In this document: positions 661 to 47,500 of the stretch, in pieces | Numbering within the stretch: position 1 is the first letter of the stretch | Layout: each line of letters opens with the position of its first letter | Source of the DNA: Bispira polyomma | Lineage: Eukaryota | Length of the DNA stretch: 64,000 bases | NCBI GenBank assembly: GCA_965649765.1 | Contig: OZ287756.1 | Location: 66,898,001-66,962,000 of the forward strand | Direction: 5' to 3' | The notes under the pieces: model-generated | The model's database searches: none | What the model saw: only the letters and a program-made list of their open reading frames with translations | What the model was told of the DNA's origin: nothing | Program-made: the position numbers and the translations under genes

Positions 661-1307
661 GGTTTTCAGCAAAACAACTCAGATATTGTTCTTGGAGGAA
701 TCAGGTGGCCCTAAAAAAGGCCGGAGGTGACACTTAGGGGGGAGGGGGGATTGAAACACATCCACCCCCCCCCAACCCCCACCCCAACCCCCCACCAACT
801 TCTCGCCCTCTGCTGCTTGGTAGGTGAAAAACGTGCTACTGTTTGATTGTGGCTTCTTGGGGCTTTTGTGTTCTCCAATTAAGCTGCTCATCAGTCTCCT
901 AATTCGGGTGAGGTGCTCTCTAAGCATAAGATTCATATCAATACTGAGTCAGGACAGGGAACTTCTTTATATGCTCCGCATACTGGTCTCTGTAACACTA
1001 TCCCCTCCTATGCTGGAGCATCTCGACAGGTCGTGGGCGTCTTGGCGTGGTGGGGACAATCCCTGTGTCGACGTGTGACCAGCTAATTCTCTCTCTCGGT
1101 GAAATCTGGTGGGGCTTGTCCTGATTTTTTTTTGCCATGAGCTTGCAAAAACGCGTCCTCTGAGATTCGCACTAGGTCTTTAATCTGTCATCTTCAATCC
1201 ATGGGTGGTAGCGAAGTCCTCTCATAACTTCTTCTTCAGGGACATGTCTTTAAATTGTTCGTGTAGCTTGTTGTAAAGCACTTTATTGTCTCTGACAAAA
1301 TCTGCCA

Positions 1308-3658
1308 CTGATTTCATCCACTCCTGTAGATGATCTCTACATCTCAGACCATGTGTCACTCATCTTTGTTATTCAGCTCTCTAAACCTCTTCCTGAAAAG
1401 AAAAGAGTATCTTATAGAAAAATTAACAGCATTGACATTGACCTTTTTAGACAGGACATACAGGCATCTGAAGTTATCACTAAACCTACCAATGATCTGG
1501 ATCTACTTGTTGATCAATACAATCAGTGTTTATCTAACATTTTGGACAATCATGCACCTCTTATTGACCGCTTTATAAGAAGTAAGCCAAAACAACCATG
1601 GAACTGTGACCAAATAAAGATTGAAAAGAGGAATCTCAGAAAACTTGAAAGGGCATGGAGGAAGTAAAAAAAAATAAAACAGACAGAGATTCATTCAAGG
1701 CTCAGCGAAACAGGGTTAATGCCCTCATAAGATCTGCCAAATCAGAGTATTTCAGCACCTACATAGACTCCCACAAAGGCAACCATCGGGCCCTTTTCAA
1801 GACAGTTGCCAAACTTACTCACTCTAAGGCTCCTCAACTCTTGCCACCGCACAGTAACAAACAGGATCTGGTGAATAGCTTCAGTGGTTTCTTTGTTGAA
1901 AAGATTGATAATATAAGGAAGAATTTTTTGGACTGTAAACAAACGAAGGGAGGGAACTCTACTGGAGCATCTACCGCTCAGTTTATACAGTTCAAGACAT
2001 TGTCTCACGATGAGGTAGCTGAACTCATTACTAGAGCCCCATCCAAATCCTGCTCTTTGGATCCTATTCCTACTTGTCTTTTGAAGCATTGCTTGTCTGA
2101 TCTTCTACCCTGCATAACTAACATAATAAATATGTTTCTGCAAACTGGAAAAATGCCTGAGTTTTTCAAACAAGCTGTTCTCACACCAATTCTCAAGAAC
2201 GAAGGGGCTGATCCTGTGTTCAAAAACTTTTGCCCAATTTCAAACCTACCTTTTCTCTCAAAGCTCGTAGAAAAGGTTGTATGCCAACAACTTTCAAAAT
2301 ACATAGATTCAAATAGCCTAAATGAACCTTATCAATCCGCATACAGACCCTGTCACTCCACTGAAACAGCAGTATTGAAGGTGGTAAATGATATTCTGCT
2401 TGAACTGGATAACAAGAAGGTTGTTCTGTTAACACTTCTTGATGTCTCAGCAGCCTTCGACACGGTTGATCATAAAATCCTCTTAAATAGATTGAACGAC
2501 ATGCATGGTATACAAGGCACAGCTCACCGGTGGTTTCACTCATACCTGGATAAGAGAAGTCAAAGTGTAGTGATAGATGATGCTAAATCTGAACCACATA
2601 CTTTGAAGTATAGTGTACCTCAAAGGTCAGTCATGGGACCTGACCTCTACTGCAAGTATACCTAGCCAGTGGCTGGGATTATAGGACAACATCTCATTCA
2701 ATATCACCTTTATGCTGATGACTCACAACTCTATACATCCATCAGTCCCAAAATAGACAATCAAGCCGATACAGTATGTAATCTTGAAAACTGTATTGAT
2801 GCTATTAGCAAGTGGATGAGCAACAACAAGTTGAAATTAAACCAGGATAAAACTGAATTTATACTACTCGGCAATTCCATCCACCGAAGTAAAATGTCAA
2901 TCAACTCCATAAAAGTGAGTGAGTCTCTCATCAGTTCAAGTAAATATGTCATTAATCTAGGAGTGTTTATTGACCAAGACTTCAATATGAAAAAGCAAGT
3001 CAGTCAACTTTGCAGATCCTGTTACTTTCAGCTGAGGAACATTAGATACATTAGATCAAATCTCTCAATGGATGCAGCCAAAACAGTAGTTCAAGCCCTC
3101 GTCATGTCAAAATTAGACTATTGTAATAGTATTCTCTTTGGCATATCAAAAACACTATTAGATAAACTGCAAAGAGTTCAAAATTGTGCAGCTAGACTTG
3201 TGTTAGATTCAAATATGGAGCACAGAAGTTCACTTGAATGCTTGAGAACACTGCATTGGTTACCTGTCAAATACCGGATTCAATACAAAATTGTTCTCTT
3301 GGTGTTTAAATCAATCAGAGGATTGGAACCTCCCTATATCCAAGATCTGCTGCTTCCACACAAAAGCACACGACTACTGCGGTCATCAAGTGAACACTTG
3401 CTAACAGTTCCTAAGGCAAAATTAAAAACCTTTGGAGATCGGGCATTTTCTGTTTGTGGACCTAAGCTATGGAATACTCTACCAAAGCATCTGAAAACCT
3501 GTACAGCAGTCAGTGTTTTTAAAAAGAAACTAAAAACTCACTTTTTTAGTTGTGCTTTTGAACTTTAATTTATAATTTATGCTGTTAAGCGCATTGATTA
3601 CTTTGTGTAGATTTTGCGCTATAGAAGAACTTTTATTATTATTATTATTATTATTATT
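1308..3658 (+). mobile_element. L2-group (CR1/L2) non-LTR retrotransposon, 5'-truncated
   Basis: ORF2 remnant: endonuclease C-terminal SDH (~1345), then KSCSLDPIP, PISNLPFLSKLVEK, QSAYR..HSTETA, LLDVSAAFDTVDH, VPQRSVMGP, YADD, LHWLPV, FGDRAFS..GPKLWNTLP, FKKKLKTHFF. Short 3' UTR with agcgca...tgcgct stem-loop and (TTA)n tail 3633-3658. Confidence 0.95.
1353..3568 (+). pseudogene. LINE ORF2 (endonuclease C-terminus plus reverse transcriptase)
   Basis: Track ORFs 1353-1667, 1655-2665 and 2669-3568 form one protein, with a frameshift in the A-run at ~1666 and one in-frame TAG at 2663-2665 just before YADD. Confidence 0.92.
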
Positions 3659-6857: not shown

Positions 6858-7090
6858 TGTGATCTGGTCCATGTGCCCAGTCGGTTATTTTTACCTAGCA
6901 TTTACTATTTATGATCTGGTCTATGTGCCCAGTCGGTTATTTTTACCTAGCATTTACTATTTATATGATCTGGTTCATGTGCCCAGTCGGTTATTTTTAC
7001 CTAGCATTTACTATTTATATGATCTGGTCCATGTGCCCAGTCGGTTATTTTTACCTAGCATTTACTATTTATATGATCTGGTCTATGTGC
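6858..7090. repeat. 54-bp minisatellite, ~4.3 copies
   Basis: gatctgg starts at 6861, 6913, 6967, 7021 and 7075; near-identical units. Confidence 0.97.
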
Positions 7091-8019
7091 ACAGTTTTTG
7101 CCTGTGGCGGTTGGTGTGTTTGTTTTCATCACAATTGTACACTGCGTGGCTGTCTGATATTCTGGGCATACTTGAGAGATAGTGATATTTTTAAGAACAG
7201 GCCTAGTCATTTAACTATACCCAGACACGATGTTTATTCTATATTTTATAGCTACAGTTGTACATGAGAAATTATACATATGGTTAAAAATATCTAGCTC
7301 TTACCCTCTTGTAAGCAATTGTAATCAGCTGCAAACGAGTTTTAACTGGCTTCAATTGATAGCAAGAGTACAACCTTTGACAGCTAATATTTCTCTCATG
7401 TCATTAAATAATCTATTAGATATGTAAATATGTAGCACAAAATCTGTTGTATATTAAGCAACACACTGTTTTTTACATATTATTTTTTTATATTTTTACT
7501 CTCTCCTAAGACATTCTTGGCTGGCTGTGTAACAGGTGAGAGCATAATAAAAAGTCTATCTATCTATCACTGGGCTTAAATAAGTCTACGGCAAAAAAAT
7601 CAGAGTGGCAATACATATGGATGCCTTCATTGGCAATATAGGCTATTCAGGTGAACAAATTATTATAATATAATATACTTTATTGATTGTGTGTAACTTA
7701 AAAGAACAATAGTACATCCAAAATATTAAATACTTTCATAGAGTGAAGGCTTGACAGAAAAATTAATTCCCATTGCAGTGGACATGATTCTAAAAGTTCC
7801 CTAGTGTGGTGAGATTGAACAAGGAACGACAGAATAAGATTTAATGTTTGGAGGTTTATTTTGGAGGTTTATTTTGTTATCTGTACCCAGAGTTACAGTG
7901 TGTGAAATAATAGATACAAATAAAATTGTATATGAACACATATACATATATCGTTGTACAATACAATGACTACCACACATGGGAATGAATGGGAGCATGC
8001 AATAACAAATATTTTGGTG

Positions 8020-9300
8020 AACTTAGACCTAGGGTTATTACCCCCTCTTCTAAGCAGGCCAGTAGCAGCTAAGTAAAAATTGTCTGTGAAATTGGAAATT
8101 TTAATAAAATGGTTTTAATTTAGATTTTTACTTTTTACTGAACTTTATGTTTGTTTTTATACTTTGATTTTAATATATTTTTAATATATTTAGCTGTTTC
8201 TAATACATCATATAAAATGGAGATGTAATAGAGAAGGTGTGAATCTGGACCAGATTGCAGCAGAAGGGAGTACTACCAACAACTTGTCTATAGTCATATA
8301 AACGAGAGGTAACCAAGTCGAAATGTATCAACAAATCTGTCTCAAGCAGCAGACCATGATGGACACAGTATTAAAATCCATGTCCAGATTAGAAAAAGAC
8401 GTAGCAGCCCTGAAGACAAAAGAACGGGTATTACAACCTTGTGTTTCCAGTAGTCTTGCGTATGAGGACAGTATAGTTGATGGTGTGTCCACCACTACTC
8501 AGTTGTTGTCGGGAGCTGTACGTCTTACTCCAGCCCAGGGAAAATGACAACTGGAACAGGGTTATCCTGCTTCATTGCCAGCACCCACGCTTGTCATGTT
8601 ACTTGGAAGGCAGACCCCTTGTCCAGAAGATATCGGAATGGCATGCAGAGTTGCATGACAATAGCTGAGAGGAGTATCCAACAGTGCTCAAGATATCGTT
8701 CCAACACCTGATGTTCTACGTCATTCGGCTCATATTTAAAATGATGTCAGTGTCAGATTGCAACAGTATGAAACAGCAACATCAGCAGAACTTCTGAATG
8801 GTAAGAGTTATATTAAACAAAAGTCTGATCATTATAATTTAGCTAACACTTGTACTATTGACCCCATGTTTCGATGGCCAAACGAGAGAAGCTTAGGTCT
8901 TATTCACAAGAAGAAGGTAGCATTTGATGAGCTTACATTAGCACAATTTGCTTTGAGACAAATTCACAACATCTTAGAAGAGAAGAATGTTGCCATCTTA
9001 CGCAGGATGTTAGGTCAACCGGTCGATACGTTAAGGGATACAGCAAATATTTCATGGCAGATAGCCCGAGGCACGTACGCCCCCAGCATGCATAATGTGG
9101 AACAACCACACACAGAAGAGGGAATTGCATGTACCTTGCGTATACAACATTTTCAATGAAACCAGTGTAGCGAAAGTTCAAATCACAAGTTCGAAACACA
9201 ACTACAGTATTTCAACATATTTGAGAAAATTGTTTCAAAGTGAGCAAGCGAGAAAACCCACATCCCCCAATCATAAGGTTTCAAACTACATGGCAAGCCA
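8020..9300 (+). mobile_element. Tyrosine-recombinase retrotransposon relic C, gag-like region
   Basis: RLQQYET..NGK..QKS..YN..FRWPNE..KKVAFDELTLAQFA..SWQIARG..MHNVE aligns with the gag of the element at 26294-27537 (RLAEYET..QGK..QKLGQFN..LRWANE..FDELSLLQWA..MHDVE). Decayed C..FN...C....H..HI*ENC finger at ~9140-9240. Confidence 0.8.
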
Positions 9301-9959: not shown

Positions 9960-10530
9960 CGTAAATCCAGGTTAAAGTGAATGAGAGATAATGGTGGAGA
10001 AAGTGTGGGACTAAAGCAGCTGCTTGTGAAGTTGACTGTTGCCATAATCCGTGTGAAATGATGTTTTGGAGGGAGACATTGTTATTGAATGCTGAGGTTT
10101 CACCCGGCCAGCGGAATGTGTGGAAGCCGTGTAAGACTGTTTTTATAGCTGCTCTAATGTGACAATACACTATGGAATGAATTGGTGCTACTGTCACAAA
10201 CAGTGGGGAAGTAGGTAGGAGTTTTCTAGCTTTTATGAGTTTGGAAAGTGCCAAAACTGGACATAAAAGTGGGACTTTTTTAGAGGGGTATCAAATAACA
10301 TGGCTTACATTGTTAGTGGTTAAATATTTCAAATTTGTGTCCATATAACACCCATGTCAATGACTGTCAGTCTTGCTCTTCTAGCTGTGAATACCTGCCT
10401 TGTGACAAGGACCCTTTTCTTGATGGAAAGTGTGCCCCTGGATTTTTGGGATTTAACTGTGAAGGTAGCAAGGTATAGTTGGAATGTTGAGCAAACCAAA
10501 ATAAGTTGTACAAATATTAATGATTTCATA
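9960..10530 (-). pseudogene. Tyrosine recombinase fragment of a Ngaro/DIRS-order retrotransposon
   Basis: FHTFRWPGETSAFNNNVSLQNIISHGLW..SQAA matches the YR at 23427-23654 (FQTFRRSGATFAFNNNISLQNIMSHGLW..SQAA). Many frameshifts. Confidence 0.85.
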
Positions 10531-11840: not shown

Positions 11841-13810
11841 GGTTGCAAGGAAGGAACATACATAAAATACTTGAATAACACAAACAATAATTTACTTAGT
11901 TTACACTTCTTAAATAAACAAAAAGTCCATAATGTATCTATAATTTACCTTTAATTATGTGTCCCAAATCCCAGTTACCACAATGCAAAAGCTTTGTTTG
12001 GGACCACCTTGATTATTGTAGCTGTGCTTTTGGAATTTATCCAAATCACAGACGAAAAAATTGTATGGCTCAAGATATCACTAAAACAAAGCTTATTTCA
12101 ACTCCCTCATCATTATTCGTTCTTTTCTGATGGCATGGTTAATGTCTACATGATGAATTACATTGATTGGTGAATCATATGATCCACTCTCATTGTGATT
12201 TTATACAAGAAAAGCATAAGTTACATCAGTAGAGAATTGCAATTAACAGTTTGCACTCTTATCCAGTATCGTATTATTTATAATTTATGACATGCGCTCA
12301 AACTTAAGCGCTTGCTAGAACATGTTCTACAATTTAACTAAACCTCTAGGTGTGTAAACTGGTAATGTAGGGTAGTAATTCAAGTGTAGCCAGTATTAAT
12401 AACTTAATAGCTTATCAGCTTAATTGGAATAGAGAACATAATTTCAAGTCATCTGAACATTACACAAAAATACTGGATAATAATTAGAGAGGGGTTATTC
12501 ATAGTAAAGATACCATCATAGTTAGCAATATTACAGATTTACTATTCATGCGTGATACAAGAAATACTGGATCAAAAGTAGATGAACGCAATCACATATT
12601 GAATTTATATAAATCTGTTACTAAACGATGACAATGGTAATATTTATGCACTGAATTTTGTAAATTTATCATTTTCCAGTCTAAGTAATTTAATTGATTT
12701 TATCACTTTGTAGTAACCGTGTCCTTCAATTTGTATTCCACTAGTAACTGATACAAACCCTGGGTTTTAACAAAAAATATATTCACCATTCATACATCGG
12801 TTATTAATTATTTGTTTAAGATCATATTTTCCACCTGTGTTAAGCTTTCTGGATAATGATATATGCAAGCATTGTGGTTCTTGGGATAGCTGAGTAGTGT
12901 TCCTGCGTCCGGTTTTTATGCTCTTGGGTGTTGTCAAGGCTGATGTGTATACTTTGGTGACGCGGGGTCCGGTGGGCGCCAACCTCCCCCCTTTTTGGTA
13001 TGGCTCCCACCCCATCTTAGCTGATGATCTGTATGTTCTCTGCAAGAAAAATCACAAAGTAACTGTTATAAGTGGCAATGCCTGATTACCTTTAAGGGTA
13101 TGTTCTCTGTTATATCTGTTATAACCGACAATGCCTGACTTTAGGGTATGTTCTTATTTAGAGTAAGGGTATTGTAAGGTCATGTAAGGATGGGTAATAT
13201 TAAGGCCTTAGATGAGTTTAAGGCCACCTTAAACAGTACATGTTATCATTGTAGTTATTATCTCAATATTTTAATAATCATAATGTAGTCTAGTAACTTG
13301 GATGTGCACATATTTGTTAGTATAAGTTTTATTAATTATAAAAATATAATTTCCCGCTTTGCTTTCACTGTGTCCTTGGGTTGTGACCTTCTGTGACATG
13401 GAAATGTTATTCCTTCATGTATAATAAACACTGTAAAAACTTGACATCTAGAAAGAATGGCTAATATTTTATGGTAAATAATCACCGAGAGTTATGTTGT
13501 AATCACATTTATTTATACAGGTATTTGCAGTTGTATGTGTACATTTTGATGGAGACTCGGTTAATAAGGTCCTCCTGTAAAACTGCGTCATAAATAAACC
13601 ACTTCATATGTAAATACGAATACCGGGTAACATATCATGGGTTTATATGTAAACAAATTAGAACTAAACAATATACTGTATTTGTATTGTAGATAGCATT
13701 GTTACAACTTAAAATCATTTGATTATTTGTTCAACCATTCATGTCTGGTAAAATTTAGTATTTCAGTAAATTATAAGCACAATTAGGGCTGGATACAATT
13801 AAAAAAATGA

Positions 13811-14020
13811 TTATTGTTAACCTCGCCCTTTGAAAGAGGTTGTTGTTTTCGGTCTGTGTGTTTGTCTGTGTGTGTGTGTGTGCCATTATCACACAAAATC
13901 TACCCTATGAAATGCATTAAAATTTACAGATCTGTTTCAAAATGGGGACCTCTACATTTGTACTACATTTCAATCAAATTGGTTATGAACTGTAGCTTTA
14001 AGACAAGATTCCATTTTTAA
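13811..14020 (+). mobile_element. 5' part of a non-autonomous Helentron-like (HINE-type) repeat
   Basis: ttattgttaacctcgcc...gaggttgttgttttcggtctgtgtgtttgtctg(tg)n resembles the typical 5' end with microsatellite. Matching 3'-end-type motifs (gc(g/a)gaggtatgcact) occur at ~15868 and ~39900-39936. Confidence 0.45.
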
Positions 14021-20056: not shown

Positions 20057-22306
20057 TCGACGACTTGCCGAAAGATGTAGGTTATGAATGTAAAATAAAA
20101 TATACCGTTGACTGCTATTCAACAACCTAGGGGTTAAAAGAGTTAAATATCCACCAAAACTTCATTGTTCCCAGATTTAAACCTACGCCCCTGTATCAAC
20201 CGCTTTTCGACAGTTGTAGGCATTATAAAAGTGTGCATAAATGTAGCCCAATCATTTGAACAAAAGCAAATGTAAATAATTCATACATATATAGAATACA
20301 GCTAGATAATTGACCTACTATTTGATGTTTTTTCTTGATTTATTTTATTCGTACACTCAGTACAATAACATGTATAAAAGACAAACAAAAAACAATAAAA
20401 TAACTCTAATTAGGATTATATTAACTAAAGATCCAATATATGTACAAAACAATAACTTATTATGTCTTATACTTAATCAGTGCCTAAATAATGTATTAAT
20501 TCATCAAGTTTGTGTCTATAATACAGTAAATGGTGAATTTGCCTTAGTAATAACATATAATAATATGTATTACCATTTATTGAGAGACAGACACATAACT
20601 TTTTCATAAGCCACAAGTGGCTGTCTGGGTCTAGCATTTAATCAATTGTATGATGTGTTTATATTTACCAGGTGAGAGAAGAATAAAACTCCATCTGTTT
20701 AATTGTTGTCATTTATGATCATACATTGTAACGCATCAGATGCCAGCTTATGTTTGCTTTTTTCTGCCAAATTCATATACTATAAATTAAAAGTTTTTAA
20801 AGATGAAACTACATCGAGTCAGTCTGTCAACAACAAAAAGACACGTGAAAGCTATAGAGACAAAATTACTTTGAGTCCTGAAAAAACTGCCATACATATT
20901 GAACTCAATTACTTCTTCAAAACACCCCCTCTCCTCCCCAATTCCATTCACAACCTGGCTAATTCAGTACTTTTTTGGTTACAAATATCCTTTTGAAGTT
21001 GCAGTGATTGTATCTACCACACAGTAAATCTATTACAATGACCCCTTTTTTTGGCGCCTGGCCCGAATTCCCACAGGACCCCCCTAGCTAAACACATTGC
21101 CTCCTTTAATATAAACACACACCTACACAAACACAGAGCCATACATACACTGTACATAATTTATAGGCGAACCATTAACCCTGAAATATTACATGTACTT
21201 TAATACATAACTCAGTTGAAAGGAATGGAACTCAATCTTCTTTGGTTAATGTTATTATTCCAGAAGGGAAATTTGAAAAAGAAAAAAACCTCATGAAATA
21301 ATCCAACATTCTCTTTTCTAAACGACTCATAATACTTTAATTACAAGATTGTGTTCACTCCAAAGTAATTTCTAAGTACATGTGCACTTAATTTTTTTTT
21401 TAGGATTAATATAATAACGTAAGAGAAACAAGAAGCGTCTTTTCAAAAGGACACATATGAACCCCCTCAGTTGTGGCCGGGTTGATCTCTTTTAACCAAT
21501 CAATCCATGACGGCCTTGCATATTATTTATCAGATGTTGGTGTCATTTTCATTAGCGGTGGCCTTTTTGGAATAGAACAATACGAGGCTGCACCGGATGA
21601 AAAGTAAACACCCTCATTCGATGTACCCAAATACATTAAGTCAAGTCATGTCCTTTTTTATATTGATCAAGTTATTATATCGATAACTCACAATAAATAT
21701 ATTGATCCTAAACAATAACAAAAATTATTGAGATACTAACTGAATCAATTTAGATACACATCTTTATTTATTGAGAAAGCTACTTAACAAATAGAATGAA
21801 AATGCTTTAAGAACTTTTAAGAGAGAGATCCTTTGCCCAAACTGTAAACTGAGAAAAATAACATGTCAACATAAATTTAAGACTGATTTAGAACTTTTTT
21901 TTTTTTAGGAAAGCCTATCTCTTGGATGTCATGTAATTGTGTTTTTTGTTGTTTCTTAATGTAGCAATTTGTCTGTCTAGTGTCTGTACACAGCCATTTA
22001 TGACTACTAATAGTGATGCTCGGACTTGTTTAATCAGTAACATACTCTGCATCCTCCAAGTTAACATAAGATCCATTGACAAGTTTCAAATGGAGCTTCA
22101 AACATCAGTTTTATGGCCAATGATTCTATTCTTGTTTGTCACTTTGTACCATCTGCTGAGACAGTTATGTTTTCAAGTTAATCTGTTTTGCTTATTTTAA
22201 GTCCACCTTGTCTACAAAGAAACAAACAAAACTGATCTACTTCAAATTTGTTAACTCGATAATGTAGGGCACACATAATAAGAACTAAGAATTAAAGTTT
22301 AAAGAC

Positions 22307-22626
22307 GATTCCAGGTTGAAGGATAGATCCAGGTTGAAGGGTGGATCCAGGTTGAAGGGTAGATTCAGGTGGAAGGGTAGATCTAGGTAGGAGGGTTGAT
22401 TCAGGTAGAAGGGTAGATCCAGGTGGAAGGGTAGATCTAGGTAGAAGGGTTGATTAAGGTAGAAGGGTAGATCTAGATAGGAGGGTAGATCTAGGTGGAA
22501 GGGTTGGTTCAGGTAGAAGGGTAGATCTAGGTAGAAGGGTAGATCCAGGTAGAAGGGTTGATTTAGGTTGAATGGTAGATCAAGGTAGAAGGGTAGATCT
22601 AGGTAGAAGGGTAGATCTAGGTAGGA
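22307..22626. repeat. 18-bp minisatellite (gatctaggtagaagggta), ~17.5 copies
   Basis: Read directly; purine-rich strand. Confidence 0.97.
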
Positions 22627-22859
22627 ATTTAAAATAAGGAAATAGTGAATGGACGAGGTATTAATGTTTTGTCTTTGTGCACTTTTAATTAATCAATACC
22701 CAAACTAGGATAACCTAAATATATAGATCTTTGCAAACTAGTGTAAGGCGACTATATACAAGGCAATGCTTTTCTGTAATGGTATTGGTAGTGAAAAAGT
22801 ATATGTATGCACCTTCATATGGTACTCATGAACTGAAACAGTCAACTACATCAAAAACT

Positions 22860-23120: not shown

Positions 23121-23426
23121 ACCACACTATGGTATATTATTAAGAGAATGTAGACTTACATTACATGGCTATGTAAAACATTTTTGGTTATTTTACATGG
23201 TAAAATGATCTGAGTATTAGTAAATATATATCTATTTAAATGCAGTTTGCCCAGGTTGGTGAGATAAGTCAGAGGTAAGTATGTAAAGTAATGTGTTCAG
23301 GGGTCCAAATATAATGCTTCTAATTTGAGATATTTATTTCTGTACATGTTAGAGTATTATTTACAAGTAAAAGTAGGTTAAAAGTTTAAAAGTTCTAAGA
23401 TAAATTTTTAAAAGACCAAAGCCAAA

Positions 23427-23934
23427 CTATAAAAAATGAGGGATAGAGGCTGCAAAGGTGACTTGGACTGTGGAGGCTGCCTGTGAGGTTTTTTGAAGAT
23501 ATGTCCAGACAGCTGAGGATCTCCACAGTCCGTGTGACATGATGTTTTGTAAGGATATGTTATTGTTGAATGCAAATGTCGCCCCTGAACGTCTGAATGT
23601 TTGAAAAGTGTGAGATTTTTTAGGAATTCCTGAAAATGTGAGGACAGATGCCAAAGCAGAACGTATGTGTGTGTCTACAGTTGGTTAATATGGACGTGTG
23701 CAGGCAACAAATAATGGGTAAGTATCTGGAAGAGGCCTGGATTTTAAAAGCTGCTATTCAGGGCAAAGGTTTTTGTTGTCTAATAAAGGAATTTGTATGA
23801 TATGGACCTCACCTCTGGTTTGTAAGTTCTTTGCCCATTTAAGTATCACATGGGCCCCTGGTGGGCCAAATATCACGTCTTTTCTTAACAAGTGGGTGGC
23901 ATATGTTATCAAATTGGGCTCTAGGGTGGGGAAA
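23427..23934 (-). pseudogene. Tyrosine recombinase (catalytic half), element A
   Basis: HLLRKDVIFGPPGAHVILKWAKNLQ..IPLL..LCP; FRRSGATFAF..IMSHGLWRSSAVWTYL. N-terminal part deleted. Confidence 0.88.
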
Positions 23935-25300
23935 TTACATGGTAATGTTAAAGTTAAAAAAGTGAAGTGGGATATGATGCCACACAAACTCTTGTTTTAA
24001 CAATATATTTCTTTCCTTATCTGAGTAGTGGTCAGAGTATATTCTTGACAATGCGTCCGCTATACAGTTCTTTTCATGCTTAATGTGGTCAATTTGTAAG
24101 TTAATATTATATTGTGTTATAACAGCCATATGTTTTTAAGGCACAGGGCTAGAAATTCATCTTAGTCCTGTTGGAACCAACAACTAGTACCACAGCCATG
24201 TTGTCACAGAATATCTTGATTGTACTATGCGCCAACGGTTCGCCCCAGAGTTTAAGAGCTATTAGAATATTAAGCATCTCTATATGTATAATGGACATTT
24301 GACGGTCACTCACATTGTAGAGGGGGGAGGCATAAACCTGAATGTTGAAAATACCCCCTACACCTGTGAAACACGCATCTATATAGACAACGTTAGTTTC
24401 AATGTCGAGCTTTTCATTGTAAGTGATTCTGTTGTACTGTTTGAGGAAAACAACAAACCATGCAATATCTGCCCTCATGGCCTCTGTAATTTTGAATCGT
24501 TTCGCCTGGGCGTTACCTCGAAAGGCCATGAGAAGTCTGTTTGTGAAAGCCCTTGCAGGTTTCACACATTTGTGGATGTACAAAAGTTTGCCTAATTTGT
24601 CCTCAATTTTATCTTGTGTTATACTGATGGTGCCTTTAGGAATGTCTATGTCTATGCCTAAGCAAGTTACTCTGGTATTTGGAGCTGAAAGTTTGTCTGC
24701 ATTAATAGGAAGACCTAAAGAATCGACTAATTGGTATAAATCCTGAAACGCTTTCTCAGCTGTATCGCTGCTTGATATACCGACATAATCGTCGATATAA
24801 CAAAAGACCTGGTGGATTAATTTCTTCAAGGCATAAGCTATCATATCAGAACATCGCTGAAAAGCGGCCGAGCTGTGGACCCAGCCAAACGTGACTGCTG
24901 GATCCACATACTTTTCACCTTTAAAACATATGCCTAATTTGAGTGCGTCTATGGGGTCAACCCGCAAATTTCGAAACGCCCGGAGACGTCCAACTTAAAT
25001 ATCCTGCCACAGTACAAATTGAATGTTGTCAAATAGTTGCTTGTTGACATTATCGTTGACCAGTTTCCCCTGAGGGTATGACAAGTTAAGTAAGTTTCTT
25101 TCTCAAGATATTTAGTGAAGCAGGGTCATCCAAAGACAGGGGGAACCAAATTTTAAGTACTGGAGTAATAATTTATCTGGTTGGTCAATTAAAATTTTTC
25201 CTATTGGTCAATATTTAAAACCAGATATGAGGGGAGTGCGTGCCCATCTATAATTTGGGCACCCCCAGTCCTTAATAATGTTTGCTATTTTAGCCATCTG
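23935..25300 (-). pseudogene. Reverse transcriptase / RNase H, element A
   Basis: ORFs 24149-24967 and 23935-24129 carry YIDD and DIRS-type RNase H motifs; GCPNYRWARTPL at ~25250. Confidence 0.9.
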
Positions 25301-28300
25301 GTCAGTTGATGAAAATAGAACAGGAGCCCTATCTGGGCCTATAAAAGTAAAATTAGTGTCAGATAACACCAGAAAACCCTTATTCTTGTCAGGTAGGTTA
25401 ATATCAGTGACATTCTTGTTTTTGAAATGGTGAAATGTGTGCATTTCTGATTGGTCGGTAGGTGGCGTCGAGACATTACCTTGTGTGCTATCCACACTTG
25501 TTACATTTATTTTAATTATTGACTGATCAATCATTTCTGAATGATTTTTATCATTAACATCCAACATTTGGTCAATTAAATCTGTCACATGATCAGTATA
25601 ATTACACCCATATTTGTTAAATGACAAGATGTCTTTTTTGCTGATCTACAAATACTTCCTTTGGTGTCATATCACCTATAGCATTTGCCTCAGCAGTAAT
25701 CTTAGCAGATTCGTGGTCACCATAAGTGTATGTCACATGAAGAAATGTTTTAATAGTTTGTACTATTGAAATAGGGCCATCTGGTAAAGAGTCACATTTG
25801 AAATAATCACATCTTTGACAAACAGCATTAAATTTTTGAATGAAGAAATCTGTTATTTCCCCATTAGTAGATCTAATATAAATAACAGGCAAAATTTCAG
25901 AAAAAGAATCTGGAAAACAATGTGACCAATTTATCACCTGAATTGTCAAACCACACTTATTAGTGACAAAACCTGAACCTGATCTGATGTCTGTTTTTGA
26001 CTTTGCTGGAAAGCCATTCATGATTACATTATAACTTTAAAGTACTATTTTGACACTTCATGCTGGTTTTTGTGTCCAGCTGATTTTGGGCAAACTTATG
26101 GTCCACCAACACATTGTTATCGCAATTAATTTCCCAGTCACATTCAAGTCTTTCGCCGTGGCTGTACTGCCATTAAATTTTATTTCCTTTATATTACTGT
26201 TCTTTCCATTGCTAATAATATCTGATAATAGTATACTATTAATGTCGTTATTACTGTCATTACTCAATACACTCAAATCCCTACAATGCCTTTCTAATGT
26301 TTGCTCATCCAGTTGTTGGTCACTGGCCTAGTTACTGGTTGTTTTGCCTTCATGTTGTTTCGAAGAGTTAGCCCTATAGCACTTGAATTCCGAGTGAAGC
26401 GATTCCTTGTGCAAAACAGTGGAGCAGTGCTGTGTCTATATTGATCGTGATCTGACTTGTTGGTGCATTTCCTGGCATTGAATAATTTGCAGATAGTTCT
26501 GGCCGATTGTGGTTTGTATGACCGGTGGGAGTTGTGCGAATGGCCCAGGTTGGCCATTGCCATCTGAGCGGCGTTCATTCGGTTGAGAGCCCATTGTGTT
26601 TTGTCGCCCCACTGCAACCTGCCTTTTTCGACATCATGCATATTATGCAACCATGATGTTCTTACTACGTCAGCAGCTTCCCTTAACAACAGAGTAACTT
26701 GTTGAACCATGTTACTTGATGTTTCCGAATCAGTGACCTGCATGGCTTTCGACAGCTGACCGCCTGCCCATTGCAGAAGTGACAATTCATCAAATGTGGG
26801 ACGCTTTCAAGCTGTCCCGCCTACCCAGCCTTCGTTGGCCCATCTGAGTTTGGGATGAGCAGTTGGTATGTTGTTACTATTGAATTGCCCCAATTTCTGT
26901 CTGACTGGCTTACCTTGTGTAAGAGTACGTTGGGCCTGGGTCTCGTACTCAGCCAGCCTTTGGTTGACGAGAGCCTGGACTTCAGGGATGGATTTTAGAA
27001 TGTCTACCTTGGGGAAAATAGCTTCCTTGGAATAATCAACGTGTTGGAACGAACGCGCCTGTGACTGTAGTATGGGTGCTGGAGCACCAGCCAGAGGTAT
27101 ATATGGGGCCATTGTAGCTGATCTTGGCTAGGTGACACAACGGGAGTCGATTGGGACGTCTCACATGCTTCCATTCTGTCTGGCCGTCGGGTGATGACCT
27201 TGTTACACTTCTCTAATCTCTCAAACATTGCCATCATGGCTGGTATTACACTAGTTTCGGCTTGCATTGAGGAAGAGGCTGCTCTGTGAGTCATGGGGGG
27301 GGGGGGGGGGTGTGTATGACTAGCAGTAGTAAAAGGCAACTGTTGGCCAAGTTGGGGAGATGCATACTGAGTAGCATTCTCTGGGTAGAATGGAAAGCAA
27401 AGATTATTTAATACACTGTCATTTACCTGTCCTTGAGTGATTTTTTTCTTTGCAGATTTTACCCGAACACTACTTTCCTTGGATGTCCTTGTTTTAACAC
27501 AAGCTTCATCTGAAGGCATCTTCTTGGGTTTCCCCATTCTTTAAATAATACTCAAATTAAAACACTAAAACGTTACACCACTAAAATCCTGATACTAAAA
27601 AACAGCAACAATTGTAATCAGTCCATAAAATAACAGAAACTAACTTGGATTTCTTATTTCCAAGTTTTACTGTGTGTGTGCTTCAATGTCGAAAAGCTTA
27701 ATGGCGAATTTATTTAGGGAAATTGCATTGTCGAATTAAACAAAGAACTGGTTGGATGTATGGCTGGATAGACATAGCGAAATAAGTCAGCTCAGTCCCC
27801 AGGGGTTAAGGTAGTTTTAAAGATTTAAAGCGCTGGGGCAACTGAAGTACCAGACCCCTCTATGATCATGATATCTACACATAACTGGCCTCAGCTGATA
27901 TATTAACACTTGTGGTAAGTTTTGGTGGTTTACAAAGTTTGATTTGCGGCACTGTATTTGCAAATACCAAAAACTAGTAAGTGCAATAACCCCTTCATCC
28001 TATATTGCTTTTAGTAAGAGGAAATGAAGTAATGGGTTCTATTTTGAAAAACTCATCATGATACCCTTGTTATCTAAGAGATAGATAAGGTGTATTAGAA
28101 AGGTATTAGAAAGGTAACCCAATCAGATTATCACTAATCGCTCAGGCTATTTCTCTATGTTATTGTACTTTAGTATATATAGGGTATCTCCCAAAATAAA
28201 TATAAAAATTACAACTGTGAATTGTTAGTGGAGTTTATATGTGAAGCGTGTGTAGCAAATGTGCTTTGAAGAGTAACAATGAACTCCCAATTTAATACTA

Positions 28301-38500: not shown

Positions 38501-41500
38501 AAAAAAAGCAAAATATGGTTATAAAAGTCTGCTTATATATATATATATGTTTCAATTTATCCTTTGCAAGAAGATGAGATTGAAGTGTGCCATGCACATT
38601 TTGTTACTTTAGGTAATTTGCATTTTTAAAGAGGTGTCTTTGACGTGTTCTTTTAAACATTTTTGCCACGCCTTAATTAAATGTTTAGTCGTGTCATGTA
38701 AAATTTTCTCCAGCAATTATTTAAAAAAAAATGCTAAGCTGATTACCGAACAAATTATATTTTAGTTCCATATCCATGTATATATCAATGACAGGACAGA
38801 TCCTGATCCACGTGTTCGTCACACCATCTGGACTCAGGTCATTGGTCAGGTGTTTATATTCCTGCCAACCTATGGAGGGAATCAGATGATGATCCAGAGA
38901 TACCATGCTGTTGCGACCACCAGGCAGGCACAGATGTGAGTCTCCCCTTTGAATTGTATTACAGTTGGTTAGCTCCCAGTCTATATATAGACTACGGGGT
39001 ATTGCATTCAGGTTGTATGGTTGGATGTGCTGACAGTGCTTGACAATTTTTTAGATGGGGCTAGTTCTCAGAAAACTCGTGGCCACTGAAGTACACATTT
39101 TGTAGGAATATTCATCAGGCGGTGTAGGTGTCCAACATCATGGTTTGGGGTTTTGGCTTCTCTAATGCTATTTGTAACATAACTATTAATGCCATTTGTC
39201 TGCTAAAATGAACATAAGTATAGATACATTGATTATGATCCGAATACAAAATCGAATTTGTCATCAGTAGAAAGCAGTGTTGTGCCCTGATGACTATTTG
39301 GTGTCACCGGGAGTTAAATAGGGAACCAGACCAATCACATGGCCACTAGTACACACTTAGTAGTAACTATTATATAGAACTGACATAGAAGTTTAATGAC
39401 TAACTTCGATAGCACCACAATAGATAACGGAGCATCCAGTTAGTATTCAAAATAATATTTCAATATGAGAAAAGGTTTGTGATCAGAGTTTACTAAGCAG
39501 ACAAAGGTTAAGGCTGAAAAGCGAGTTGATACAGATGTGTTTTGAGTTTTTTTTCGGAAGTCTGTTAATCTTTGTCTTTAAGTGAACTATGCCATTCAGT
39601 AATGATTTTGAATATACTGTGTTGCATCACTCACTCTCTATAAAATATTTTAGATGGGCCTTGGTGTACAAACTAATAATATACTGAGCATATCACAAGA
39701 GATTGAGTGTCTAGTCAATAAGTAAAACAAAAACAACGTACTGGGATCAGCCAAGTTGTCCGTGTGTTGGTTTTTTGTTGTTAACAATATATATACTGCA
39801 GGGATGGCTAAAGGGCAAGGCATAATCCAACATAAGGTTGGTAAAAAGGCGGATCAATGATTTGTTTTGTTTTTTAACTGTTTTAGCACCGTGGTACCTT
39901 GGCAGAGGTATGCACTCCACTAAGTGTTGTTCTAGTTAATAGTTATTAATATATATTTTGGTTTTAGAATGTAAATTATGACTCTATACGTTATGTGGAC
40001 TTAAAATCTTGTAACACTTTTAAGTTTTCAGCGAAACTTTTTCCTATGACTTCCCGGTAAGACATTGTACTTCTGCGCATACTAATAGGTTTACCTTTAC
40101 AGAGCGTTCTGGATACAGATCCTGGCGGCGGAGTTCCTGCTGGCTATGGTGGTGATCTGTGGTCTGGTGATGTATGCTAACTTTGTGGACTGTGACCCAT
40201 TACTTAGAGGGACAGTAACAAAGCCTGACCAGGTATGTGTGTGTGTTTGTTGTAATGTATATGTTCAATATACCGGGCTGTGTGTGTGAGATGTAGCGTA
40301 TATGTTAAATATACCGGGCCTGTGTGTGTGAGATGTAGTGTATATGTTCAATATACAGGGCTTGTGTGTGTGAGATGTAGTGTATATGTTCAATATACAG
40401 GGCTTGTGTGTGTGAGATGTAGTGTATATGTTCAATATATAGGGCTTGTTTGTGTGGCCATACCTGGTCACTAAAACACACACCATAAACTACATTTGAC
40501 ATTCTACATCAACTTTGCATATATTTAAAAAAAAGTACAGATGTCTGCTGTAGTAACAGTTTTCTATTGCAAGGAGCTGAATTTAAAGAAAATAACATTT
40601 TCGGGCTGCTTGCCAACAACCTGAGGTCGAAATGGTTAAAAACAGCATGTCACATATTAATACCTATAATCCCCTCACCCGAAAGCACACATACGCACCA
40701 TTTCAAACAACACATCATTAAACTATTTCTTTTTAAATTAAATTCTTTTTGTTCTCATTTTAATATTCTAACCTATTTGACTTGTTGTTTATGGGTAACA
40801 CAATAACTATATTAGACAATAATTCTAATTCCAAGCGATATATGTGACGGATTGTTGTGTTATGTCTGCAAAAACAATTCTGACCTGAGGATGGGTGTGA
40901 CTTCCAGTTACGTATATCGAGCCGATAAACCAATTATAGTATTTTACTTCAGTCGTTTTACCATGTTATTGAGGATTTTTTTTATACCAAATCTGCGTCT
41001 TGTTTTAAATAGTAGTGTTCCCATGTATAACTTTTCTGGGCATAAGGTAACCTTAACTCAAATGAGTTTAAGTTTGACACAAGTTTGATTTTAAGTCCAA
41101 ACTTAAGGATTTAATGTAAGGTTATCATAGTTTAAAGTTCGACTTAGGGTTTAAGTCAAACTTTAAATGGATGAGTACAATATGTACTGCTGTAGTGAAG
41201 GGGGACCTTATGCCCAAAAAGGTAAACTATTTAGTTTTACTGTGAGTTAAAAGATACTTTATTTTATATTTTTCATATTTTAAGCTGACTAAATATTTTA
41301 GTCAGACCACCAAACAACAATTTTTAGTAGGTATTTTGTAGAACGTTTCTAAAAGAATCTGCCACATGAGTACCAGCATGGGCAGAATCTGAGATATAGC
41401 GCCAGACGCAGTCAGACATCCAGGTACCCTGCCTCTGAATATCTTGAGTTTTAACATTATTATTGAAGGCAAAAGTGGCACCCCAACGTCGGAAAGCATG

Positions 41501-44500
41501 AAAAGTCAAACCAGAGTACTGCGGGCCAAGTAGGAACAGAACATTCTTCAGATGTCTGCGCACCCTTGTATCAGTAAGAGAAACCCAAGAGCTTTGCAAT
41601 TTATATTGAAATAAGGGAAGATTCTTTCCCTGTGGTGAGATGGCCAGAACAGACTTTAAAGCCTGCACTGGGAAAAGAATGGAATTTGGTATACTGGGGA
41701 TGGTAAGCAATCGAACTGCATCATTTGTCTGCAGTGTTTTTGACCATTTTATCATTAGAACCGCATACCCTGGTTTGAATTGGATCTCAGCTCCGGCTAA
41801 CTTCTTAATAGAATGTGGACACAAATTAGATAGACGCAAGAAAGTAAAAAAACTTGTCAGATAGACAGCCTTGAAAATTATGTATTAAATACTGACTTGA
41901 GCTTGGCTTGCAAAGGTCTGTGCATAGCAAGAGCTTTGTTGTAATAAGCAATTCTTTGGTCTGAAAACGCCTGGACATCCAAATGAAATATGGTACATTT
42001 AGCTTTTATAGCCGAAATTTGATTAACGGCTTGAGTGGCTGACACACCATTGAAAATTAGAAACTCTAAGTAAGCTAATAATTGGAACACAGCCAACTTG
42101 TGGGGAGGCCAAGTCATGAAGACTCCAAAAGCTATGAATTGCCTAAACATTCTGTCATAGGCTTTATTAGTGGCTGGAGTAAAGGCTGAGTTCAGCCTGT
42201 CACAAGCGCTTTTCATCAAAGCCAGACCCACAGGGTGAATCTCTGGAAAACACTACTAATATTTGCTATATTAGAGTATTCACATTAAGTAAACTGTCAA
42301 AAGCAAGAAGCCATTGAACTGGCCCAGCTTGTTTGTACAGTAACAAATGGTTGCTTTCTGTCTCACTCCATCTGGAAAGTAGGTCAGCTATCTTATTTTC
42401 CTTGCCTCAAATATGTACTACAGCAATTTCAATATTAAATTTGCTAGCTAACATGTATATATTTCTAGTAAAAGTGGCCAATGTCGGGTCTCTGGTACAC
42501 CCTGTCTGCAATACACTGACTACTGCCTGGTTATCACATCTGACTAAAATTCTCTGACCTCTCCATTTTTGAACCGACAATTTCATTGCTACCAATATAT
42601 TTAACATTTCTAAAGAAGCTATGTTCAAGTCAGTCATATACTCAGGAATTTCGATTTGATACACTTGTTTTTGATAAATGCCCCCCATACCTGTGAGGCA
42701 GGAATCCTATTCTATTTCGCCAGTTATAGGCTTATGTAAGAAAAATGAAACGCCATTAAACTACTTTGCCAATGTTCTCAACCAATTTGAGTCACTTTTA
42801 AATTCATATGTCATTGAAATTATCTTTTTGCTATAGTTATCACGTAGCAGTTCAAGAGGGACTGTAATTCTCTCTTAGTACAATAACTTTTTGAAGTCCA
42901 TTCATTACATTTGCTTTGAATTTTTTGCAACTTTTCAGACGGGATGGAAGTTGTGCACTCAATTGTATTGATTATTATGCCTAGACAGACTACCTCTGTA
43001 CTGGGTTGAACTAATTTTTCTTATTTACTGTAAGACCAAGCTCCTGAAACAGTTCTTGCAATCTCACAAAGGTTTTTTGAATTTTGCCAGGAATTGAGAC
43101 GCATAAAAAGTCTTCGATGTAATTGTGAACGTTATGATTTTCTGATTTCATTATAAAATGTACTGCGTCCGAAATTCTTTGAAAAATCATGCTGCTGATA
43201 ACCGAATGGCAACGATTTGTCAACATAGTATGATTTCCACTTTAACCTAAGTTGTTAATGTCACCAGGGTCAATCGGGACGTGACGGAATGCTCTGCTCA
43301 GGTCTACCTTGAATATCTGACACCCCTTTCTCAATTTTGACACTTGACTAGTAAGGCTGTCAATGGACAGATAAGATAACAAGAAATCGACACCCAAGTA
43401 TGATGTGGGGGACACCCCTGGATTTTGTGAAGCCCCTTGAGGCCACTTTAAATCCACAATGACTTGTCTATTGAGCGAGTTGGGCTTATGTCTGGTCATA
43501 AGTGGGGAACAATGTAAATTTTGAATTGGTAGTGTCTCGAAAGGGTTGAGCATCGTACCGAGTTCACATTCTTCTTTCATATATGTATCTACATGTTCCG
43601 GAAATTCATTTGCCCACTTATGATCGTTTTCATCAGATTTAGTCTGAATTGTGTGACATATGTAAAGGGGAAATCCATAAAAAGAGGCAATTGCCAGTCC
43701 CAATATGTTTCCAGATAAGTTCCAGATAAGTTTCTGAATTTAATTGAGAATGGACAGCAATCTGCAATCCGCTGTGGTCAAATCTACCATCAGCACATAT
43801 TTTGCTATGCATCTCCAGTATGGTAAGTTCAGTCCCCCCTACCTTGATCAACAATCTTGCTGCCCAAAGCTGAGAGGGGAGTGAACCCATAGGCATATTT
43901 ATTTTGTTCCTGCCATTTTTTGTATGTCTTATTCGAAGCCTCTTTTTGTAGTAATTCTCATTTATTTTGTTTTTGCTTTAAAGCACAAGAGTATTTGCCT
44001 GAGCTTTCAGCATTTTCATTTGCACCTTCAGTGCAAGTATTTGTCTTTTGGTTTATTTTGAAACCTTTATTGTTTATAGCCACAGAGCTAGAGCGAACAA
44101 CCCCTTTGTATGGAATCACTGTTATCGACACCTTTTGTCTCCACATCCCCCTGCTTTCTGCTTGGGTTTTGCTTCACAATAGGTGTCTCACATTTAAGTA
44201 TTTGACAATCAGAAGTGTTAACAAAGCTGACAGTATTGTTTTTAATTCTGCCTTTCACACCTTTTGGTGTGTGAAAGGCCCCTTTCTTTACCACTTTGCT
44301 TTGTCTGGCTTTTCTCACCTCACTTCTGTTAGCCACATTTTTTGTAAATTCAGTATTATGTACAAACATAGAATCTTTACTACTACAAGTACTTTTCAAA
44401 GCCTTGCTATAACTAATATTAGGCCTTCTGATCTTCATATATTTACACATTTTTGTCAAACAGATGATAATCTTTGAATTCTGTCCTATGGACAGTTCTA

Positions 44501-47500
44501 CCTAGAATTTTACTATTTCCTACTTTTCTGTTCACTGCATTTGTGCAGTGGCCCCTCGGTTTTTTACCCCTTTTTACTGTAAGTACTGGTCTTATGACTG
44601 CCCTCACAAGTCTCACATATGTGCTTGTACAACTGATCCCCTGTGTTATGTGAACTGGGAAACTTGCACTTTCTTTCTGGGAAGAACCAACAGATCATGT
44701 ACCCTTTTTTGTAACTGGCTTTCTTGGAATTATTACTAGAACGGCTATTCACCCCATTGAAATTTTAAGTGCTAGAAACATGACGTTGGGCGTGCCCTCT
44801 GCGGATTCTATCGACTTTCTCGACATCTAACCACCCTAACTTATCCATTTCCATGTTCGTTAGAACAACAGCATGGCACGCCTTAGCCTCCTCCCACGAA
44901 AAACTTGGGCATCTTTCATGAGGCCATCCATATAATCTAGCATCGCTTTTTAAATTTCGACCGATTTCTCTTTGCGTGCTATCCGGGTGAAGCCACAGAC
45001 CCACTGTACTAAAGTTAAATCATCATAACTCTGGCACATTTTTACACTACCCGTCAATACATAATTCTGTGGCCATTCAATGACCTTTTTGACCTTTTTG
45101 ACAACAATCATTTCCCTCACTTCTTTGCGACTTAAGTTTACCTTGTAAAGGAGTTTCATTAAGGGTTTGGAGATCTTTGAGCCTCTGCTCTACTTGTAAC
45201 TGAATATGAGCATTTTGCCTTAAAAATTCAACACTAGGAACGACAGAATCTTGGCCTGAACCAGAAGGGCTTTTACCCTTGTCAATAGAGGCAACATTAG
45301 AAGCAGTATTTGAAAGAACGGGAGGACTTGCCTGTTTACTAGTGAGGTTTCCTGCCAACGCTGCCTCTGTTTGTTGAACCCATTGATCCATCCTTTCCGT
45401 AACTTGCCTTAGTAACTGTAATTGCTGCAATATAGCCGTAGACACGGCGGCGTTCGGATGAACCAACGGGTCCTTTACACTAGAGCCAGCGATGACTTCC
45501 TCAACTGAAACATCAGCCACAACCGAACAATTTTTGCCAATTGGCCTCTCATGTTTTTGCAAGCATTTTGGACAGAAAACAACTTTAATGCCCGGCATGA
45601 CTAGAGTGTGTAGTTAAAATAGCTAAAAACAATGTAAAACGTATATGTCACCCAACTCTTTGTCACCCAAACTACACTTTTTTAAAATACTGGTTGCTCT
45701 GTTGACAAAACGGTAAACGGTTTTGTCAATTTTCTCAGGGGTGAAATCGCAGGAAAAAATAAAGATCCACATATGTCATGAATATATAAATTTATATCAT
45801 ATAAGTTTCTGGCTTTTTGTATTGGAAAAAAATCCCTGTCATAGTATTCACAACAAAAAAACAACAACAACAAAAGTAATTACTCACAGGCTTATACCTT
45901 ATTCATAAGCTTATACCTTATACCTCTGACAGTGATCTGCACTTTTGACCAATGTATGGTAGGATTTTAATCAGATTACCCAAGTAACAATATGTAATCT
46001 TAATTCTTTTAGACAAAATACATAGTTAAAAAAAACCTTAGTTAAAAATAATCCTTAGTTAAAAAAAATCCTTCGTTTAAGACTAAAATCTTTTGCTAAT
46101 ATATATCCTATCATGATGTCTAGTAAAAACACTTATTATACTATATACATACTACCTCAGTCTTATCTAACATATTTATGGTTCACACAATAAATGAAAT
46201 AGACATTCATTGAAGTACTATTTGAAAACAACTTTTTTATCAGTGTACAGTGTAAAATGTCAATCTGATTTGAGGACAGACACATAAGTATGAAGCCATT
46301 CTTTAGTGTCACACATGTTGTATTTAAGCATTGAATAAATACATTTATAAAAAGTGGCTGTTAAGGTGAAATTAATGACCCACAAAATATTATCCTTAGT
46401 TCTGTTTAAAGTGTTTTTTGGCCTTACATAAATATTTATAGTCATGCCGTTCTTAAGTTGGTGAATTAACTTGGTGGCTTAAAATGGCCACTTCAAACTA
46501 GTGATTTTGCAAATGCTATTTTAATAATTGCTATTTTTTTATATTATATTTTTTATTATTATGCAAATTAATGTTTTTACTTTATGCAAATGGATACTTT
46601 TTCACAATATTTAAATCTAAAATGATGCTGGACAAGTTTCAGTTGAAGACAAATTAAAAATAACAAAACTGCAGAATTTTGTGCCGACTTAAGGTTAGCT
46701 TCTTCTGCACAAGAATTGCATAATCTTAAAAAAATATATGTACTTGCATGGGTTTAATTAAACAGAAACATCCCGACCCAAGTGGTTTCACTGTTGTCCA
46801 TTGTAAACACTTCAAACACTTTTAGAGTTTGTTTTTTCTAATCATTAAAGTAAAATGTCCACAAAACTAAGTACAAATGGTTATATTATGAAACAGTAAC
46901 CAAGGGGTAAAACTTGTTAATCCATATGTTGTCAAACACAACGAAAACATGCCAAATACCTTCACCTTAATATATTGCATGTAAGGTTGGGCAGGCGATA
47001 CATAAATAGTCACAAAGTATGTAATATGATCTGATATATCACAAATTGTTATTATTTTGCAACATATTTCACAATGTTATCTATTATTTTACATGGTTTG
47101 TACTTGTTTTATATTGTTCATACATGCACTGTCAACAGAAAAATGTTTCACTATATGATGAGTACATTATGTTTACAAGCAAAAAGCTATTTCACATTTA
47201 AATTTACAAATTTGCCCTTCCTTATTATTCAAACCTACACTTACTAGTAATTAAAATTACACACCAATACTATTCAAAACGCACATTATCTAGACTGATG
47301 TATACTCTCACATATACATTATATAGTATTGGAATATATATTGACGCCTTTATTTCCCAACTTTTGGGGATGTAAAGTCTCTGTTATTCTTTATGTGTAG
47401 CACAGATAACCCAAGTAAGTACAGCTTCTTACCCCCAAAACTGGCTGGTATAAAATCATTCAAAGTTGCATCAGATTCACCTGCAGTCTCCCTAATAGTT

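Follow-up and report, generated by a model that had tools for sequence, protein, structure and literature searches.

In retroviruses and gypsy elements env, and in foamy viruses pol, is expressed as a 3' gene from a subgenomic spliced RNA that has dropped all or nearly all of gag, with gag-pol being recoded (foamy viruses excepted). A precedent nearer to the present case is the SD' RNA of murine leukemia virus (MLV), in which, according to the part of PMC10496198 that deals with it, a donor inside gag is spliced over pol to give P50, an accessory protein that joins Gag-N in frame with integrase sequence but has only the last 116 residues of the DDE integrase. Plant Ty1/Copia elements are described, in PMC5580714, as using conserved alternative splicing to make a short GAG RNA that sets protein ratios. 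For Ngaro elements, whose third gene encodes a tyrosine recombinase (YR), the printed proposal, which PMC13003380 quotes from Poulter and Butler 2015, is that YR overlaps reverse transcriptase/RNase H (RT/RNase H) in the -1 frame and is probably reached by a frameshift. Here we analyzed 64,000 nucleotides (nt) of the Bispira polyomma genome (GCA_965649765.1, contig OZ287756.1, positions 66,898,001 to 66,962,000; hereafter, the window), which contain a decayed Ngaro-like YR retrotransposon, element B, for which an earlier note had proposed a recombinase expressed as a spliced fusion with the N-terminal part of Gag (Gag-N). From the conservation of both splice signals at the level of the lineage, we infer that its intact members probably make YR as a spliced Gag-N/YR fusion.

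This arrangement differs from each of the described systems. Compared with MLV P50, the whole tyrosine recombinase lies on exon 2, and splicing is the predicted main or only route to it; P50 is nonetheless a closer analogue than the spliced env to which the earlier note had likened the fusion. Spliced env and foamy virus pol RNAs would differ from the RNA predicted here both in the third to half of Gag that is kept as a fused domain and in the 3' gene, which here is the integration enzyme. Splicing in plant Ty1/Copia gives Gag alone, and here a Gag-enzyme fusion is predicted.

In element B (Table 1), the gag ATG at 45598 is followed by 457 coding bases (152 codons plus one) down to 45142. The donor junction at 45142/45141, in phase 1 after 152 codons, and the acceptor at 42243, in phase 1 with the YR frame, both lie where the earlier note had placed them, as does the 2899-nt span between them. 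The acceptor string ...GTGTTTTCCAG ends at 42243 and exon 2 joins the YR frame in phase 1, with a hybrid codon for Glu at the junction; the RNase H stop was measured at 23 nt before the acceptor AG, close to the 25 nt first estimated. Splice sites in one copy alone are unremarkable, because element B contains 8 donor-like and 13 acceptor-like strings, and it is conservation that lifts them above chance. Two local features that had been put forward in the earlier note, a TAG TAG closing the YR frame just upstream and a branch-like CTAAT, are present in element B but proved copy-specific: relative L036 is open 36 codons upstream, and at the CTAAT position, which lies inside RNase H coding sequence, 33 relatives read CTTAT (24), CTCAT (7) or another string (2). 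Both were dropped as evidence. Three-frame translation revealed a frameshift just past the donor in gag, many stops in pol and a frameshift near 41880 in YR, no Pfam match was obtained on these broken frames, and of the element's repeats (see below) the 5' A repeat is missing and only part of the 3' B1 repeat is kept. Element B being dead, the claim had to be tested on relatives.

Table 1 Features of the Ngaro-like element B and of elements A and C, in window positions
Feature	Position	Strand	Details
Element B, decayed Ngaro-like YR retrotransposon (gag, RT/RNase H, YR)	41023..45717	-	blastn to L061/L062/L036, tblastn, three-frame translation
Predicted exon 1 coding part, Gag-N (CxxC..H..C motif, helix 1, linker, helix 2)	45142..45598	-	
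Predicted splice donor AAG/GTAAAC	45136..45144	-	phase 1, inside conserved Gly codon; cut between 45142 and 45141
Predicted intron (gag C-half, RT, RNase H)	42243..45141	-	2899 nt; removal inferred
Predicted splice acceptor ...TTTTCCAG	42243..42257	-	phase 1 in YR frame
Predicted exon 2, tyrosine recombinase (SAM-like N-domain and catalytic domain)	41324..42242	-	frameshifted near 41880 in element B
pol (linker, RT, RNase H)	42266..44565	-	interrupted by stops and frameshifts; stop TAG 42268-42266
In-frame ATG, rival YR start	42214..42216	-	31/33 close relatives; absent in most distant families
Predicted gag-pol -1 frameshift signal	44533..44565	-	A AAA AAC 44565-44559; stem-loop 44550-44533
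Element A, homologous donor AAG/GTAAG	26909..26916	-	cut between 26914 and 26913
Element C, donor-like ATG/GTAAGA at homologous Gly of third gag fragment	8798..8806	+	single copy; cut between 8800 and 8801

A DNA search of the same genome gave 143 matches, drawn from 37 scored of 1914 candidates, and 36 loci were retrieved, 35 of which were aligned as the element's own family (L065 was left out). Within this family, AG/GTAA is found in all 25 relatives covering the donor, and CAG is kept in 32 of the 33 covering the acceptor, following a T-rich tract of varying length, with 19-27 nt between the RNase H stop and the AG at the 29 measurable loci. Because these copies are 71-96% alike, such conservation alone cannot tell splicing apart from internal initiation. 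Searches of the genome with two database YR homologs gave 119 and 121 matches, and 40 distant loci were chosen for diversity before their gag DNA was viewed, the translated YR start having already been viewed for 14 of them. Together with 4 loci from the window's clade, these provided a YR anchor in 43 of 44 cases (L166 was dropped) and fell into 31 families less than 80% identical to one another (range 43-79%, median 51%), with a gag anchor in 27 (L132, L146, L152 and L169 were dropped). Young Ngaro-like families with open frames have radiated widely in the genome, numbering at least 31 under 80% identity in addition to the clade of element A; a first look had returned 13,000-14,000 YR candidates, which are not copy numbers.

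Of the 27 families that could be scored, 26 have AG/GTA closing the second conserved helix of Gag, the bases across the junction being A in 27 and G in 27, followed by G in 27, T in 26 and A in 27. The sole exception, L154, reads AG/GC, either a mutation or a non-canonical site in one copy. The donor Gly is the single Gly 11-14 codons past a conserved Arg and upstream helix, and the linker that follows it varies from 2 to 8 residues. Its codon is GGT in 26 of 27 families, in line with the earlier note, compared with 122 of the 377 remaining gag Gly codons, of which 19 have the AG/GTA context. The preceding residue takes 6 values (S14, T5, A4, Q2, K1, L1) and the following residue 7 (T13, K6, N3, I2, R1, M1, S1), with codons that always keep the junction As, which argues that the constraint acts on nucleotides and not on protein. 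GGT-AAR could instead be just a conserved Gly-Lys, and the T-rich CAG an ordinary AT-rich spacer. In favor of this, G-K/R-x-K-S is conserved in gag homologs, and TTNYAG/R occurs, scattered, 0-9 times between donor and acceptor in each family. This explanation by chance or protein constraint is, however, largely refuted and hardly credible, given that the 7 residues after the Gly all have codons beginning with A, that synonymous sites elsewhere are saturated (in five other conserved gag Gly columns, all four codons or nearly all are in use), and that the acceptor is confined to one place and one phase.

That acceptor is a YAG that precedes the AFRPxT anchor of YR by 57 or 54 nt, always in phase 1, in 30 of 31 families, matching the earlier expectation of a phase-1 acceptor ahead of YR in relatives; the only exception, L137, reads AAG, again a mutation or a non-canonical site in one copy. 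The surrounding pattern, TTNYAG/R, is the usual animal 3' splice pattern: in the 31 families, T occupies intron position -5 in 31 and -6 in 30, position -4 is free, and a purine stands at +1 in 31, while a second AG within 12 nt upstream was seen in one family. Other pairs of offsets for YAG reached 18 of 31 families at best (median 2). An acceptor picker blind to phase chose phase 1 in 29 of 31 families, missing the window copy and L162, and in a wider set of loci a phase-1 YAG was present in 96 of 100 usable copies.

Even with a real acceptor, YR might be translated alone and without Gag from a nearby ATG, by means of a donor in the 5' untranslated region (UTR), re-initiation or an internal promoter. 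The earlier note had already recorded an in-frame ATG soon after the acceptor, which we find at 42216, ten codons into exon 2; it persists in 31 of 33 relatives close to element B, and some in-frame ATG near the YR start exists in 19 of 31 families. Many of these ATGs are nevertheless upstream of the acceptor, within the predicted intron, and conservation of the internal one stops at the window's own clade. Moreover, in 12 of 31 families, multi-copy families with open frames among them, there is no in-frame ATG between the upstream stop and AFRPxT, and the earliest Met, at codon 30-55, falls within the Pfam SAM-like domain and the predicted helix 21-41. As independent translation would also leave the conserved, phase-matched gag donor unexplained, and as no donor-like string was found in the 100 nt of element B 5' UTR scanned, we regard it as improbable. 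Two conserved, phase-matched signals, together with the many families in which YR has no usable start codon, make the spliced fusion the likely route.

The published route, a programmed -1 frameshift into YR from the end of RT/RNase H, was considered in a survey of relative reading frames at 143 loci, 100 of which were usable and 43 unusable. Frame -1 is indeed the commonest (54 of 100), and 47 of these overlap slightly, as published. However, 29 of the 100 copies have relative frame +1 and 17 have 0, several families have no overlap, and a slippery heptamer is found in the -1 overlap in only 3 of 100. The gag-pol signal is clear in the same elements, therefore a pol-YR signal would be visible. 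Judged on reading frames and motifs, the published pol-to-YR frameshift does not fit this lineage, and we consider it very unlikely here.

Pol itself is probably made by -1 frameshifting at the end of gag. In 24 of 27 families the heptamer AAAAAAC is located 554-610 nt past the donor, and unbroken copies have it in the gag frame. In the copies that were folded, a stem-loop comes next, with a sequence that varies from clade to clade. The open -1 frame spans 848-869 codons in L136, L147, L148 and L151. In the clade of element A (L177, L182, L183 and L184; window near 26800-25000), gag and pol lie in the same frame with a single TAG between them, and read-through would appear to yield Pol. A conserved acceptor for pol was also looked for and rejected, TTNYAG/R sites being scattered; in this lineage YR alone seems to be spliced.

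The same two splice signals recur in deeper branches. The element-A clade (20 loci, 34-40% YR identity to the other families) has RAG/GT at the corresponding Gly in all 16 anchored loci and TTTCAG/R before YR in 19 of 20. Its Gag has both helices and no N-terminal zinc finger, so that the zinc-finger character ascribed to Gag-N by the earlier note applies to element B, whose exon 1 has the motif, but not to this clade. Among database YR proteins that start upstream, a translated trace of the phase-1 YAG was recognized in 27 of 31 in one set and in 30 of 34 in a second, for which about 54% would be expected by chance and 58 of 150 proteins were anchorable. These traces weakly suggest that the splice feature may not be confined to the B. 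polyomma genome.

According to parts of PMC4157794, PMC3266345 and PMC8547959, Ngaro-like elements are defined by gag, RT/RNase H and YR, no methyltransferase, and split direct repeats. By these published definitions, the present lineage is Ngaro-like (order DIRS). Copies with longer frames encode Gag (a weak CCCH match), RT plus RNase H, and YR in the same order on one strand. Of 25 aligned YRs, 23 hit PF00589 at E<=0.01 (for member 1 the match falls short of the curated cut-off), the fold predicted for YR resembles that of Cre (E 5e-8), and the K, H, W and Y columns of the YR alignment are invariant. The pol frame ends about 30-46 codons past the RNase H ADxLSR motif, and a Pfam scan of two pol frames found no methyltransferase family. 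Among 10 copies picked for a suspected second repeat, 9 have split direct repeats in the order A1-ORFs-B1-A2-spacer-B2 (ORF, open reading frame) and the tenth has A2 only, with A2 and B2 separated by 455-1048 nt (spacer copies L136/L195, L145/L196, L135/L197, L131/L198, L048/L199, L051/L200, L138/L202, L130/L203 and L147/L204); many other copies stop at the end of B1. A family without terminal repeats, as first considered, was thus rejected once longer flanks revealed the split direct repeats.

The lineage is like Ngaro-like elements in its gene order on one strand, lack of methyltransferase and split direct repeats, but differs from them in the spacer that keeps A2 and B2 apart and in a YR predicted to come from splicing and not from a pol-to-YR frameshift, and no hydrolase ORF was seen in it. 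DIRS-like elements share the YR and the DIRS-type RT/RNase H, but their methyltransferase, inverted terminal repeats and internal complementary region were not seen here, and the 15 self-compared copies show direct repeats or none. PAT-like elements have the YR, DIRS-type RT/RNase H and split direct repeats in common with this lineage, but the methyltransferase that follows RNase H in them was not seen. In the literature searched, two key reviews being outside its reach, we found no description of spliced YR expression in DIRS-order elements. A 2004 abstract by Goodwin and Poulter is said to mention intron-containing YR elements, so a prior mention may exist.

Besides the conserved start codons, several further points weigh against a spliced fusion. 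Element B is broken, and an intact YR is beyond the reach of its own copy. The -57/-54 offset rule for the acceptor was fixed after the data had been viewed, and the Fisher p values for the donor (2e-11 for GGT and 1e-27 for AG/GTA) overstate independence; because the families are related, the saturation control outweighs them. No transcript, junction read or protein of Gag-N/YR was seen, and intron-less genomic copies were absent in pattern searches of the window's family, one distant group and the element-A clade. Contigs of three runs (one study, kind unrecorded) gave depth in all 30 bins of L148, with no intron joint among the 15 listed of 89 joints. Neither 120 of 153 database matches, nor the best 150 of 12,828 matches, nor 7981 longer candidates included a Gag-N/YR fusion, a weak negative, as the entries resemble ORF calls made on genomic DNA.

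A search for the donor followed by a base other than T returned 3 matches, compared with 5 in the control. Two bear no resemblance to the element's proteins. The third is L066 (L066:2076-2200; G000:C4 near 99,647,490), in which a 2.65-kb deletion runs from the exact donor to an AG at the start of RNase H, in frame. This could be a retro-copied mis-spliced RNA or a microhomology deletion; its junction has 5 nt of microhomology and it is 1 of 28 listed deletions, a coincidence of roughly 3% by estimate, noticed after the fact, so that this copy is suggestive only. The conserved third acceptor at the RNase H start at which L066 hinted was rejected, as of 28 rows compared only those of the window's clade and 4 others show it.

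The splice could also occur for regulation, or as host-driven inactivation through removal of RT, the fusion not being the integrating protein. The want of protein-level evidence would fit such a role, as would the accessory nature of the similarly spliced MLV P50 (PMC10496198, in part). We give this little credence, however, since every clade examined has matching phase and the catalytic YR is retained whole, and since no other route to YR is evident in 12 families.

Other features of the window were noted in passing. Element A (23300-27600, minus strand) is decayed, and a ~460-nt deletion near 23930 took its acceptor and YR start. Element C consists of a gag fragment at 8300-9300 (plus strand) and an oppositely oriented YR fragment at 10042-10329 (minus strand). 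Near-continuous frames at 1296-3568 (plus strand) resemble open reading frame 2 of a non-long-terminal-repeat retrotransposon, and tandem arrays are located at 22237-22668 (18-nt unit), 6858-7095 (54-nt unit) and 40238-40446 (42-nt unit).

Under the spliced-fusion reading, the full-length RNA would be translated into Gag and recoded Gag-Pol and would also be reverse transcribed, whereas a share of transcripts would lose the ~3-kb intron, and the gag AUG would then drive Gag-N plus the whole ~330-residue recombinase (about 450-540 amino acids; exon 1 codes for 116-207 residues in copies with an unbroken frame). More speculatively, the Gag-N helices shared with Gag may carry the recombinase into the assemblies of Gag with the cDNA, and the efficiency of splicing might set the recombinase dose apart from that of RT, these being the steps with least support. 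We also lean, with appreciably less assurance than for the fusion itself, towards a broader reading in which the whole Ngaro-like lineage, in many genomes, makes YR solely as a spliced Gag-N fusion and Pol by recoding, which would replace the published frameshift model with a retrovirus-like plan having YR in the spliced slot and Gag-N as a packaging tag.

For the expression of the third gene of YR retrotransposons, where the printed proposal is a frameshift, splicing provides an alternative with exact junctions. If this is true, repeat-library annotations of YR ORFs lack the real N-terminus, a gap that would matter for work on recombinase activity and targeting. It would also explain how the recombinase could reach the cDNA, and host control of splicing would become a possible lever on these elements.

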